Counted from the first letter of the stretch, positions 1,018-24,792 are shown. The stretch is 24,792 nucleotides of DNA from Candidatus Aenigmatarchaeota archaeon (GCA_029932645.1 JAOZPR010000010.1:1-24792); one strand, 5' to 3'. The notes: generated by a model from the sequence alone, not told the origin. Numbers and translations: made by a program.

Positions 1018-1148
1018 GGGCTCGTAGCTCAGCCTGGTGAGCCTTTCTCTTTAAAAAGAGAAATCCTCAAGGGAAAGAGAAACACTTGGGTAAATAGAGC
1101 AACTGGCTCTTAACCAGTAGGTCGCGGGTTCGAATCCCGTCGAGCCCT
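1018..1148 (+). tRNA. tRNA-Lys(CTT) with a predicted 56-nt noncanonical D-loop intron (1038-1093); CCA not encoded
   Basis: Acceptor GGGCTCG/CGAGCCC, D stem GCTC/GAGC, anticodon arm ACTGG-CTCTTAA-CCAGT, T arm GCGGG-TTCGAAT-CCCGT. Bulge-helix-bulge: GCCT(1032-35)/GGGT(1088-91) with bulges GG|T and AA|A. Splicing gives D loop AGCCTGGATA. Confidence 0.92.
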
Positions 1149-21458: not shown

Positions 21459-22586
21459 TCAGCTAATAACTTTTATGCCAAGGTCATTTATCATGCTCTG
21501 GACACCTTGCCTATCTTGTGAGTAAGCCTTCTGGGATGGGCCCAGGATGTATGGCGACTTGACACCAGTTATTATCGTGATAACCTGAATCTTGTCAGCA
21601 TAGTCAGGAAGCACACGCGCGCCCCAAATAACCTGCGCATCTGGGTCAAGGTTCTTTGCCACTGACTCGCCTATCTCATTTATCTCACTCAGTTTCATGT
21701 CTTCTCCACCAATAATCTGTATCAGCGCACCTGTTGCACCTGTGTAATCTACTTCCAGCAAAGGATGTGTCAGAGCCTTTTGCACAGCCTCTTGTGCACG
21801 ATGCTGGGATGTGGAGTCGCCAACACCTATAGCAGCAACGCCTCCAGAGCGCATCACTGCTTTCACATCTGCATAATCAAGATTCACCAGCGAAGGTTGT
21901 GAGATTGTCTCAGAAATGCCTTTTATCATTGTGGCTATCAGGTTATCAGCCATGGCAAATGCCTGCTTTAGCGGCAGATCACCAGCAAGCTTGAGCAGCT
22001 TCTGGTTTTCCATAACAATGACAGTATCGCATACTTCCCGCAATTGCATCAGTCCGTCTTCGGCCTTGCCTATTCGGGCACCTTCTATCTTGAACGGCAG
22101 TGTGACACAACCTATCACAATAGCCCCCTGCTCTTTTGCCAGCCTAGCAATAACAGGTGCAGCGCCTGTACCAGTTCCACCGCCTAAGCCGCATGTGATA
22201 AAAACAAGGTCAACATCATTGAGCATTTCTTTTAAATCCTGTCTTGATTCTTCTGCGGCCTTTTTTCCGATATTCGGATATCCGCCAGCACCAAGACCTT
22301 TTGTAAGATCTCTTCCTATCAAAACCTTTTTTTCAGCTTTTGTTATACTCAGATGTTTAGCATCTGTATTAACCGCTATTGTTTCTGCTCCTGCAATCCC
22401 CATGTCAGTCAGCCTCGTAACACTATTATTACCTGCCCCGCCTATTCCAACAACAAGAATCCGAGCAGTGTGTTCTAAAAACTCCTGGTCAGCCGCCTCC
22501 TCTTCATGAGCCGGCTTAGACGACTGGAATGACCATTCGTTATCTTTATCTTGCTCGTCAAATGCAGATTGTATGATGCTGTCCAT
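21459..22586 (-). CDS. ftsZ: Cell division protein FtsZ, FtsZ2-type
   Basis: GGAGNN, NTD, GLGAG, GGGTGTG, NLDYAD. AKEQGAIV, ISETISQPSL, HPLLEVDY and WGAR resemble the archaeal FtsZ2 clade as I recall it. ATG 22586 follows AAGGTGTGG. Confidence 0.97.
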   Translation of the reverse strand: MDSIIQSAFDEQDKDNEWSFQSSKPAHEEEAADQEFLEHTARILVVGIGGAGNNSVTRLTDMGIAGAETIAVNTDAKHLSITKAEKKVLIGRDLTKGLGAGGYPNIGKKAAEESRQDLKEMLNDVDLVFITCGLGGGTGTGAAPVIARLAKEQGAIVIGCVTLPFKIEGARIGKAEDGLMQLREVCDTVIVMENQKLLKLAGDLPLKQAFAMADNLIATMIKGISETISQPSLVNLDYADVKAVMRSGGVAAIGVGDSTSQHRAQEAVQKALTHPLLEVDYTGATGALIQIIGGEDMKLSEINEIGESVAKNLDPDAQVIWGARVLPDYADKIQVITIITGVKSPYILGPSQKAYSQDRQGVQSMINDLGIKVIS

Positions 22587-22618
22587 ACCCACACCTTCCT
22601 ATATCTTTTATTATATAT

Positions 22619-22653
22619 TTTACCAAAGCGAAAAGCATTTTTAGTTTGGTAAA
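22619..22653. repeat. Inverted repeat next to the ftsZ-proximal TATA-like tract
   Basis: TTTACCAAA (22619-27) and TTTGGTAAA (22645-53), adjacent to TTATATATTT at 22611-22620. Confidence 0.6.
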
Positions 22654-22667
22654 CATAATAGCTTTAC

Positions 22668-22841
22668 TTTTTTGGAAGGTATGTCCAAACTTTCCAAGAA
22701 ATAGTCTAAACAGTATAAGAAAAAAACGAATCAAATGCAAATCCAACCAAAAGGTTTGTCCAAACCCTTTGAATTGTATGTTACGTCCAAACCGATTGTC
22801 CAGATCGGTTGTAACTGACACGTTGTCCGAACGTGTTTTCT
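22668..22841. ncRNA. Array of hairpins displaying GTCC/GGAC (candidate regulatory leader or sRNA)
   Basis: Hairpins at 22672-97, 22748-71, 22780-815 and 22817-37, each with GTCC in the loop, plus a GTCCA bulge at 22785-89. Confidence 0.6.
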
Positions 22842-22871
22842 AAAAAAGTACTAAATATTCTTTCTTTATTC

Positions 22872-22888
22872 TCTTTAAAAGGCTTTTC
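22872..22888 (-). promoter_or_regulatory. Putative BRE/TATA pointing toward the hairpin array and ftsZ
   Basis: Minus strand AGAAAAGCCTTTTAAAG: purine-rich BRE-like tract followed by TTTTAAA. Confidence 0.4.
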
Positions 22889-22944
22889 TATACTCTGGTA
22901 TATATGTTCACGAATTCATTATTGTATGGTAAAGAAAGATATAT

Positions 22945-23003
22945 ATTTGGAAAATCCAAACGATTCATTACACCCAGTAACAATAAATTTGGATTTTCCA
23001 AAT
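22945..23003. repeat. Perfect 16-bp inverted repeat with a 27-bp spacer
   Basis: ATTTGGAAAATCCAAA (22945-60) and TTTGGATTTTCCAAAT (22988-23003). Each arm is itself TTTGGA-N3-TCCAAA. Confidence 0.85.
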
Positions 23004-23033
23004 GATTGTCTAAGTCTTGTCAGAAAAAAAACA

Positions 23034-24158
23034 CTAGAAGACATTAAGAAACCTTGTGTATATCTCGTTGCCAAGCGCGCTTCTCAGGAATTCGCTGTTT
23101 TGTGCATTCTTTACCGCGTCTTCAAGTGTTGTTGGTAGACTTTCTGCTTCTTCCAGCTTGTAGGCATTTCCATTTACGAGCGATCGCATCTTCAGATTCT
23201 GTTCAACACCAAGCATGCCTGCGTTGATAAGCGCTGTAAAAACAAGATACGGGTTAACCTGTGGGTTGGGTGCTCTGAACTCTATATTAATATCAGACGA
23301 CTTGCTGCACTTGGGAATTCTTATCAGCGCTGATCTGTTTGCCATGCCAACACATATGTTTTTTGGCGCCTCACTCCCACCCAGCCTTTTATAAGCTTCC
23401 TTGTCAGGTGCAAAAACAATTGTCATGTCCTTTGCATATTTTAGTAAACCCTCGATAAAAGATTTACCAAACTCACTTAGGCCGTGCTTGGAATCGTCGC
23501 CAGCAAAAAGATTTTCTCCATTTTTCCAGACTGATATATGAACATGCATACCATTGCCTGCCATCCCTTCGAATGGCTTTGGATGGAATGTAGCTTTCAG
23601 GCCGTGCTTTGCAACAAGCTGGTGAACAAGCATCTTGAACATTATCAGGTTGTCCCCTGTTGTTACAGGATCTGCATACTTGAACCCGAACTCATACTGA
23701 CCAGGACCAACCTCGTGATGCATCCTTGTTGGTATAAGCCCTGTCTGCCTCATTTTATCTATCAACTCCTTCTCAAACCCGTTAAGAAAAACGTGAAACA
23801 TATATTGCTTGTTGTCCAGCAATCCGCCATCCTGCCCAAGAATATAAAACTCCGGCTCGATACCGATAAAAACTTCATACCCCTTTTTGTGCAACTCGCG
23901 CACAGTCTCTTTGAGCAGCGAGCGAGCGCAATATTTTTCTAGGTTGCAGAAGTTCACCTCTTTTGTCACACCATTCAGATTATATGTTCGCACAGCATCC
24001 GACATCAGTCGCATGTCAGACTCTTCTATGCCAACACCGAGATGCACAGATGATGCATCAACAAAGCATTCTTTCTTGTCATCAAAAATATGCATCACGC
24101 GAAACCGGCCTAAGAAATCGCAGAACACAAAATCCCTGACAATGTTGCTCTCAGTCAT
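23034..24158 (-). CDS. glnA: Glutamine synthetase type I family protein, shortened (about 374 aa)
   Basis: GIEPEFY, HHEVGPGQYEF, ATFHPKP...AGNGMHVHIS, YKRL...EAP, NRSALIRIP, IEFRAP...NPYL. ATG 24158 follows GTGTGG. Confidence 0.85.
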   Translation of the reverse strand: MTESNIVRDFVFCDFLGRFRVMHIFDDKKECFVDASSVHLGVGIEESDMRLMSDAVRTYNLNGVTKEVNFCNLEKYCARSLLKETVRELHKKGYEVFIGIEPEFYILGQDGGLLDNKQYMFHVFLNGFEKELIDKMRQTGLIPTRMHHEVGPGQYEFGFKYADPVTTGDNLIMFKMLVHQLVAKHGLKATFHPKPFEGMAGNGMHVHISVWKNGENLFAGDDSKHGLSEFGKSFIEGLLKYAKDMTIVFAPDKEAYKRLGGSEAPKNICVGMANRSALIRIPKCSKSSDINIEFRAPNPQVNPYLVFTALINAGMLGVEQNLKMRSLVNGNAYKLEEAESLPTTLEDAVKNAQNSEFLRSALGNEIYTRFLNVF

Positions 24159-24322
24159 TGACCACACTTTTCCATTCGTATTTATACCCCATATTCACCC
24201 AAAATAATAAAAATATAGATTATACTTGTACAAATAAATATTTTAATGTACTATTAGAAAACAAATGTATTTAAATAATTTGAAAAACAATACATTTATA
24301 TCAAAAAGTAAGGGGTATAACC

Positions 24323-24792
24323 ATGAAAAGCAAACAAATGTTTTTGAAAAAACTGGACAAACGAGATGCTGCAATAATAAACGAGCTGAACAAGGATGCG
24401 CGAGCGTCGTTCAGGAAAATCGCCAGAAAGCTTGGCGTTGCGACAACCACGGTTATAAACAAATACAATAAGCTAAAGAAATCCGGAATTATCAAAAGCA
24501 CAGCACCAATTATCGATACAGAAAAGGCTGGATACAAACTCACAGCAGCCATAGAAATCATTGTGTCAAAAGGAAAGCTCATAGAAGTGGAAAAGAAAAT
24601 AGCCAAAATGCCCGGAGTATTCGCTGTTTACGATATTACTGGCGAGCCTGACTCGCTAATAATTGCGCGCTTTCACAGCAGAGCTGAACTAAACAATTTT
24701 GTCAAGTCGTTGCTGGCCATGCCATACATCGAACGAACCAATACGCACTTCGTTCTCAATATAGTCAAAGAGGATTTCAGGGTTTTTGTTTA
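24323..24792 (+). CDS. Lrp/AsnC-family transcriptional regulator; stop codon probably cut by the window edge
   Basis: Not in the ORF track. Manual translation: LDKRDAAIINELNKDARASFRKIARKLGVATTTV...LKKSGII (HTH) and VYDITGEPD...IERTNT (RAM domain). Ends ...EDFRVFV then TA. Divergent from glnA. Confidence 0.93.
   Translation, partial: MKSKQMFLKKLDKRDAAIINELNKDARASFRKIARKLGVATTTVINKYNKLKKSGIIKSTAPIIDTEKAGYKLTAAIEIIVSKGKLIEVEKKIAKMPGVFAVYDITGEPDSLIIARFHSRAELNNFVKSLLAMPYIERTNTHFVLNIVKEDFRVFV

Follow-up and report, generated by a model that had tools for sequence, protein, structure and literature searches.

Introduction

In the bacterial RNAs CsrB and RsmZ, and in leaders bound by CsrA, unrelated stems present one G-rich loop word, further copies of the word lie free, and docking is multivalent. 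In plasmid antisense control (CopA/CopT of plasmid R1; Inc RNA/repZ of ColIb-P9) the stem-loops of the leader carry U-turn loops of the YUNR type, and a 5′-rUUGGCG-3′ loop motif is reportedly named in the title of a 1998 paper by Asano et al. The eukaryotic iron-responsive elements of the transferrin-receptor 3′ untranslated region again combine different stems with a constant loop (CAGUGN), and one known protein reader sets the fate of the mRNA; bacterial T-boxes sense the NCCA-3′ end of uncharged tRNA. Here we describe an array of hairpins with unrelated, covarying stems and one shared loop in DNA of Candidatus Aenigmatarchaeota archaeon (GCA_029932645.1, JAOZPR010000010.1:1-24792; 'the window' below means this whole stretch of 24,792 nucleotides). 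The array lies just upstream of a minus-strand gene for an FtsZ2-like cell-division protein, and we tentatively read it as a structured leader of ftsZ2.

The array shares its overall design with CsrB/RsmZ, but its constant part is YUGG and not A(N)GGA: GGA is present in the window's loops (UGGACA), whereas sister lineages have GGGG, GGGC or GGCG, that is, GGG or GGC in place of GGA. In contrast to the Csr system the array is archaeal, linked in cis to one gene and always in the orientation of that gene, and it comes with neither a CsrA nor an Rfam match. With the plasmid systems it has in common the YUNR-type loops and a promoter-like word pointing back across the element, and many DPANN ftsZ arrays carry UUGGCG itself. 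The window's own loop, however, is CUGGACA, three to five hairpins here share one loop and are accompanied by unpaired copies, the setting is a chromosomal cell-division gene, and the antisense RNA is predicted only. The loop, lineage, position and known reader of the iron-responsive elements set them apart, and a T-box riboswitch has just the bare UGGN word in common with the array.

Nothing reached the Rfam gathering score in the window or in 16 related loci, and at E up to 10 the interval 22560-23060 returned chance-level microRNA and small nucleolar RNA models only, none of them relevant. A literature search of listings and abstracts likewise found no description of such an element, in agreement with the first-pass annotation of the window, which knew of none in archaea. 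The array would be among very few conserved cis-regulatory RNA structures known in this domain. How the level of tubulin-like division proteins is controlled in archaea is largely unexplained, and the only described regulators are, to our knowledge, the haloarchaeal DNA-binding CdrS/CdrL; the element suggests that ultra-small, host-dependent archaea control cell division post-transcriptionally.

Stems covary around a constant loop

Every YYGGACR word in 21 upstream arrays was aligned regardless of pairing (alignment A2; 59 rows, 8-bp stem, 7-nt loop). Standard pairs filled 75.4% of the 472 stem cells, against 42.8 ± 1.9% with the 3′ letters redealt (0/500 shuffles reached the observed value), and the covariation score was 0.74 compared with 0.195 after shuffling (0/500). 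Registers slid by 1-3 columns gave a pairing of 31.6-48.7%. All eight stem pairs show changes on both sides, and the stem words are clearly distinct (CACGU, CGAU, GCAAU, AAUCCU, GGAAGU, UUCAAGU and others). This comparison supports selection on the array as a single-stranded structure in which the loop stays constant and the stems covary, bearing out what the first-pass annotation had proposed from the unlike stems of the window.

In a genome of the same genus the spacer is split across two contig ends (88% identity) and hairpins 1, 2, 4 and 5 are kept, while three array hairpins are kept in the sister genus, whose FtsZ is 75% identical. Hairpin 1 reads ACACGU-CUGGACA-ACGUGU in the former and AUCACGU-CUGGACA-ACGUGAU in the latter, and hairpin 2 is identical in both. 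In the same-genus relative a change in hairpin 4 is compensated (AAAGGUUUU-GGAC-AAAACCUUU). Hairpin 5 has a perfect stem there (GGAAAGU-UGGACAG-ACUUUCC) and in the sister genus (GGAAAG-UUGGACAUU-CUUUCC). The outer stem GTTAC/GTAAC around hairpin 2 is not kept in the same-genus relative; the UUGGACGUAAC word there is. In other families of the order, two or more hairpins upstream of ftsZ, always on the ftsZ strand, have stems unrelated to one another yet share the YUGGAC(A) loop.

A covariance model built from A2 (model R1) was run against 41 whole genomes. Its 22 best matches (E up to 0.018) all lie in ftsZ-upstream arrays; most of them are training rows, and the informative part is that no equal match occurs elsewhere, the next one (E 0.0196) falling outside such arrays. 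In the window's genome the three best matches are hairpins 2, 4 and 1, and the array is unique there. A triple-TGGAC cluster was found just upstream of a same-strand ftsZ in 18/41 related genomes, with one more at a contig end; the other matches of this pattern were coding-like and about as frequent as those of the reversed control pattern. The association with ftsZ, claimed at first for the window, thus extends to many genomes. One TGGAC cluster (genome G006) lies between ribosomal-protein genes, lacks hairpins and was set aside.

Compared with M. jannaschii FtsZ1 (PDB 1W58), the FtsZ of the window scores 344 bits and a paralogue on contig C17 scores 442 bits. Because of its weaker FtsZ1 score the window copy is, by this measure, the FtsZ2-like paralogue, in line with its first annotation as ftsZ2. 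The C17 copy has a short upstream spacer without any array. Seven genomes of family f2 (G003, G010, G020, G023, G026, G031 and G038) have an FtsZ1-like gene besides two FtsZ2-like ones, three ftsZ genes in all. In these genomes the array stands before the second FtsZ2-like copy alone, and therefore several loci picked by best FtsZ hit seemed to be without one. Throughout the genomes searched the array appears always ahead of one ftsZ paralogue and nowhere else.

Within the 21 arrays, the sense strand has 91 YGGAC words and the antisense strand 2. This bears on a DNA-level explanation, in which repeated TTGGACAA boxes would bind a transcription factor (e.g. of ribbon-helix-helix or Lrp type), or cruciforms would form, upstream of the ftsZ promoter. 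The 8-bp word is indeed near-palindromic (TTG-GA-CAA), wobble statistics are symmetric, and two Lrp-type palindromes with TTTGGA half-sites lie 100-150 bp further upstream. The arms, however, are variable and covarying (6-12 bp) around a constant asymmetric centre, whereas duplex-binding factors read DNA otherwise; the word is oriented one way in 91/93 cases; and the array lies downstream, not upstream, of the conserved TFB recognition element (BRE)/TATA. We regard this explanation as very unlikely.

The array within its own genome

The source is an Aenigmatarchaeota metagenome-assembled genome (MAG) of 718,593 bp (43 contigs, 41% G+C, 89% complete). The array occupies part of a 441-nt spacer (22593-23033) between a glutamine-synthetase-like gene (23034-24167, minus) and ftsZ (21459-22592/22586, minus). 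All the hairpins, four with different stems and the same GTCC/GGAC loop in the first-pass annotation, were recovered where they had been placed, as was the variant word GTCTAAAC at 22704 (plus-strand reading), every copy in the same orientation (Table 1). The loops read GTCC on the plus strand, i.e. GGAC on the ftsZ-sense strand.

Taken on its own, the window is only suggestive. A strict hairpin rule finds two same-loop hairpins in the spacer, a number reached by 661/2000 dinucleotide shuffles of these 441 nt, while a rule allowing one mismatch finds four, reached by 64/2000; as evidence both shuffle tests are weak, and the array is just modestly unusual by itself. The word GTCCAAAC has three copies in the window, all in the array (0.71 expected; 3/100 shuffles reach three). 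The decisive support is the comparative evidence given above.

Genome-wide, GTCCAAAC is not over-represented (20 copies on both strands of the 718,593 bp). Hairpins with a GGAC loop, for which enrichment over the genome had been suggested as a further check, show none when set against all 4-mers: there are 20, or 6.6 per 1000 GGAC words, and the median over all 4-mers is 8.7. Yet the array is the sole place in the genome with at least five YGGAC words within 200 nt. Since neither the word nor the hairpins are enriched while the dense cluster is unique, the array is a single local feature and not a dispersed repeat. A palindrome of the repetitive extragenic palindromic or miniature inverted-repeat transposable element type was rejected, there being one locus only in this genome.

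A family of YUGG loops in DPANN archaea

A wider sample comprised 77 loci collected by FtsZ similarity, each with 450 nt of upstream sequence, labelled Aenigmatarchaeota, Woesearchaeota, Nanoarchaeota, Parvarchaeota, Nanohalalkaliarchaeum and, in one case, Promethearchaeota. An unbiased 5-mer scan of these upstream regions gave TTGGG 104 times in sense and 14 times in antisense, and hairpin loops with GGGG numbered 23 in sense and 0 in antisense at DPANN ftsZ loci. The pattern YUGG[ACG][CG] matched 176 sense words, of which 62 lie in perfect hairpins of at least 5 bp with 39 distinct stem ends; the antisense strand had 41 words (2 in hairpins) and the ftsZ coding sequence, both strands taken together, 455 (1 in a hairpin). 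UUGGCG is a further frequent loop (18 of the 62 perfect hairpins). Perfect YUGG-type hairpins occur at least once in 42/77 loci and at least twice in 15/77, both figures being underestimates, as imperfect stems and second ftsZ paralogues were left uncounted. No YUGG-type hairpin was found at the only Promethearchaeota-labelled locus sampled (L116).

The more distant DPANN members have the same design with loops UUGGGGR, UUGGGCG or UUGGCG; among loci L097-L118, for example, the UUGGGC and UUGGCG types occur at the same place, on the same strand and with the same YUGG loop start. In the window's order, CUGGACA/UUGGACA loops are accompanied by single-stranded UGGACU words, hairpin 1 usually lies at the predicted transcript start, and families f7 and f8 show the loops UUGGGGGA, CUGGCA and GGGC. 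In keeping with this design, the window has at least two unrelated-stem YUGG hairpins no more than 450 nt upstream of ftsZ and on its strand, with a predicted sense BRE/TATA ahead of them. Judged by this sample, the element is kept across Aenigmatarchaeota, with variants in Woesearchaeota-, Nanoarchaeota- and Nanohaloarchaeota-labelled genomes, and the window's CUGGACA appears as one form within a family in which YUGG alone is constant.

A reading of GGAC as the DRACH consensus of N6-methyladenosine, for which no observation speaks, was also set aside, given the change of the GGAC word to GGGG, GGGC or GGCG in sister lineages. The AUGGACA at the ftsZ start, at first taken for the same motif, does not persist either: the same genus has AUGGAU and the sister genus AUGGAA. 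By eye, no conserved complement to the loops was found near the ftsZ start in the window, a distance of 80-260 nt separating the array from the start codon.

The array might act as an RNA sensor, in place of a protein site, whose U-turn loops offer UGGN to an abundant RNA, either the NCCA-3′ end of uncharged tRNA or the tRNA-Gly anticodon loop; GGA, GGG and GGC are glycine codons. DPANN cell division would then be coupled to the translation state by an undescribed archaeal riboregulator. We consider this very unlikely.

Predicted promoters and a predicted ftsZ2 leader

A sense BRE/TATA word is found upstream of the array in 15/21 loci and in the opposite orientation in 1/21. Under a looser rule, 18/21 loci have a BRE-like word that precedes the first loop by 40-73 nt (40-41 nt in nine of them), compared with 3/21 in the opposite-strand control. 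Archaeal transcripts start ~23 nt after the TATA box, and in most lineages the predicted start falls at the foot of hairpin 1. The minus-strand BRE/TATA first noted at 22872-88 (P1 in Table 1) is thus conserved, and its spacing to the first hairpin is fixed; this speaks for a long ftsZ leader. No canonical sense promoter word was found nearer ftsZ in the window, and among the 21 loci one has a sense word between array and ftsZ. A strict pattern for the proximal promoter block matched 11/74 loci and was dropped as uninformative. A sense transcript from P1 across the array into ftsZ2, with a predicted leader of ~260 nt, is likely.

The same promoter could instead serve an independent small RNA gene, running from P1 to the U7 run (22726-22720) and yielding a trans-acting sponge for a protein or an RNA that is merely syntenic with ftsZ. 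Such a gene would have its own canonical, if predicted, promoter, many loci have U5-U7 runs or a conserved AUUUCU(N)AG motif after the hairpins, and the architecture resembles that of sponge RNAs. Hairpin 5, however, lies beyond the U7 run and is nevertheless conserved, with a better stem in two relatives; ftsZ2 would be left promoterless, given the single locus with a nearer sense word; and the orientation is always that of ftsZ. An independent small RNA is in our view quite unlikely.

We prefer, although tentatively, to read the array as the front part of a structured ftsZ2 leader on which a single trans-acting reader, probably a protein, would dock at the repeated U-turn loops and at the single-stranded UGGACU words. 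P1 would give rise to an ftsZ2 mRNA with a ~260-nt leader, the front 190 nt of which would be the array. Four to five YUGGAC copies would be displayed, mostly in U-turn-type YUGGACA loops and otherwise as single-stranded UGGACU-like words. One trans-acting reader, most probably an RNA-binding protein, would recognise the word and, once bound, would set the amount of FtsZ2 by acting on how stable the leader is, on how often the U-rich tract is read through or on how accessible the start site is. The structure and its covariation, the strand-specific word, the confinement to ftsZ and the conserved promoter geometry follow from the data above; that the array is transcribed, that a reader exists and of what kind it is, and how it would act on ftsZ2 are what we infer here.

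That the word would be read, and not the shape alone, is suggested because 25/91 sense YGGAC words lie outside hairpins, 17 of those 25 reading UGGACU, while the loop copies are mostly followed by A (51/66). A natural variant points the same way. A look-up of sequencing runs with the locus listed 20, none of them recorded as RNA. Strain variants were drawn from DNA contigs of four sequencing runs, the spacer being partly uncovered in three; in contigs of two runs, 22829 G>A turns the hairpin 1 loop from UCGGAC into UUGGAC, which is nearer the consensus, and it is the main environmental strain that has this change relative to the window. The array provides a concrete bait in the search for a regulator, a 190-nt RNA with a 7-nt loop.

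Several points weigh against the preferred reading. Loop positions 5-6 drift by lineage (GGAC, GGGG, GGGC, GGCG) and only YUGG stays constant. No CsrA gene was found in the 89%-complete genome (PF02599, 0 matches; controls E. coli, B. subtilis and T. maritima positive), and with no Rfam match the likeness to CsrB/CsrA drawn in the first-pass annotation does not amount to Csr membership. Nor is there a conserved neighbour gene, the best gene cluster occurring in 17/77 loci. The rows of A2 are partly orthologues and not independent, and its counts overstate the independent events. An antisense promoter-like word lies between array and ftsZ in 12/21 loci, against 1/21 for the sense word, all promoter calls here being predictions by a simple word rule; the antisense word accords with an RNA partner no less well than with a protein. 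Well-formed hairpins contain 8 G.U against 13 A.C (p = 0.38), and wobble does not mark the sense strand; G-U pairs, once cited for the plus strand, do not favour that strand either. Both strands fold better than shuffled sequence and about equally well (sense, -47.5 kcal/mol, z -2.9; antisense, -44.7 kcal/mol, z -4.0).

From the antisense word of the window a plus-strand RNA would begin near 22666, where hairpin 5 has its foot, and run back across the array. A convergent promoter between array and ftsZ2 could thus produce an antisense RNA whose loops pair with the YUGG U-turn loops of the leader, with duplex formation, decay or transcriptional interference as the outcome, as in plasmid copy-number control. 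The antisense word in the 12/21 loci just mentioned, the window among them (22629-22643), would suit such pairing; all loops begin with YUGG, in keeping with the YUNR rule for U-turns, the exact hexamer UUGGCG is present in many DPANN loci, and the stems are Watson-Crick on both strands, as the wobble counts and the folds indicate. A fully complementary antisense RNA, on the other hand, needs neither a shared loop nor free copies, and yet 25/91 words lie outside hairpins; the promoter rule is crude; and the plus-strand end, to which a terminal T-run had been ascribed, has just a T4 run followed by a pyrimidine-rich stretch. Pairing with an antisense RNA, the main rival of the preferred reading, is possible, if on the unlikely side; it would make the array a chromosomal counterpart of plasmid copy-number control with the same loop chemistry. 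It and the docking of a protein reader are not mutually exclusive, and the observations here only narrow the strand question. Of the overall interpretation first put forward, the structure, the link to ftsZ and the promoter stand, and the AUGGACA start, the G-U argument, the T-run and CsrA do not.

Other features of the window and its genome

Table 1. Coordinates of the array, its predicted promoters and the downstream gene, counted from the first nucleotide of the window
Feature	Position	Strand	Sequence or remarks	Plus-strand reading
Predicted distal promoter P1	22873..22889	minus	BRE AGAAAA 22889-22884, TATA TTTTAAAG 22880-22873; read as AGAAAAGCC-TTTTAAAG	
Predicted sense transcript start	22849..22852	minus	In TAGTAC; from TATA-to-start spacing; ~12 nt before hairpin 1	
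13-nt inverted repeat I6	5′ arm 22838..22850, partner 22665-22677	minus	92% complementary	
Hairpin 1	22818..22836	minus	ACACGUU-CGGAC-AACGUGU; read from sequence	GACACGTT-GTCCG-AACGTGTT at 22817-22837
Hairpin 2	22790..22810	minus	AACCGAU-CUGGACA-AUCGGUU; best model R1 match in whole genome, E 0.0017	AACCGAT-TGTCCAG-ATCGGTT within GTTAC...GTAAC, 22780-22815
Outer stem around hairpin 2	22780..22815	minus	GUUAC/GUAAC; weak; also holds unpaired UUGGAC (22785-22790)	As for hairpin 2
Hairpin 4	22747..22772	minus	UCAAAGGGUUU-GGAC-AAACCUUUUGG (also AAAGGGUUU-GGAC-AAACCUUUU); model R1 E 0.016	CAAAAGGTTT-GTCC-AAACCCTTTG at 22748-22771
Linker	22703..22746	minus	Degenerate words UUGGAU (22746-22741) and GUUUAGACU (22711-22703); U7 run (22726-22720)	
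Hairpin 5	22672..22697	minus	UUGGAAAGU-UUGGACAU-ACCUUCCAA (GGAAAGU-UUGGACAU-ACCUUCC); one sense-strand A.C mismatch	TTGGAAGGT-ATGTCCAA-ACTTTCCAA at 22672-22697
Antisense BRE/TATA-like word	22629..22643	plus	CGAAAAG-CATTTTTA; same word rule as P1	
Proximal block	22584..22621	minus	AAAAUAUAUAAU (22621-22610), Shine-Dalgarno-like GGAAGGUG (22599-22592), likely AUG (22586-22584)	
FtsZ2-like cell-division gene	21459..22586	minus	TIGR00065 match, 408.6 bits	

The linker corresponds to UGGACU-AUUUCU(N)AG, a conserved motif at the end of related arrays, and may act as a partial terminator. Repeat I6 is paired in the minimum-energy sense-strand fold and could enclose the array as a whole; the same-genus relative keeps part of this repeat, and none was seen in the sister genus. 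The proximal block is near-identical across three genomes. Between array and ftsZ, an inverted repeat (TTTACCAAA...TTTGGTAAA, 22619-22653) encloses an A-rich box and a TTTCG word, and relatives carry a hairpin or palindrome with different arms at this position; the repeat may be a promoter, an operator or one more RNA hairpin.

Three further explanations of the spacer were rejected. An 87-codon frame running through the array into the ftsZ start (22558-22821, minus) does not stay open in the same-genus relative, which differs from the window by three 1-nt indels inside the array. A replication origin with origin recognition box repeats is at odds with the absence of orc1/cdc6 among the window genes and with words that all point one way. 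A terminator of the upstream gene was discounted, as that gene has its own T8 run directly 3′ of its stop codon.

The product of the upstream gene is a short glutamine-synthetase-like protein (377 amino acids; 277 bits, GlnA cut-off 429) without the N-terminal part of the GlnA model, and a gene of the Lrp/AsnC family lies at 24323-24790. Just after the upstream gene and ~100 bp before P1 are the two 15-bp palindromes of the Lrp/feast-famine regulatory protein type already mentioned, TTTGGAAAATCCAAA and TTTGGATTTTCCAAA (22945-22960 and 22988-23003, 42 bp apart). They are kept in the same-genus relative and may be operator sites for the predicted P1.

ARAGORN found two tRNA genes in the MAG, or 12 with introns allowed, with tRNA-Gly(GCC) as the only glycine acceptor; the sole tRNA match in the window (1088-1148) is just 61 nt long. 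Some tRNA genes of this MAG may have been left out of the assembly, or they may be split or rich in introns. The MAG has no large-subunit rRNA, the molecule that a conceivable P-loop mimicry by the array would concern. On contig C1 (7684-7709) two convergent genes flank a lone 9-bp hairpin with a UUGGGGAG loop; its 5′ arm recurs as a direct repeat after the hairpin, which seems unrelated to the ftsZ array.

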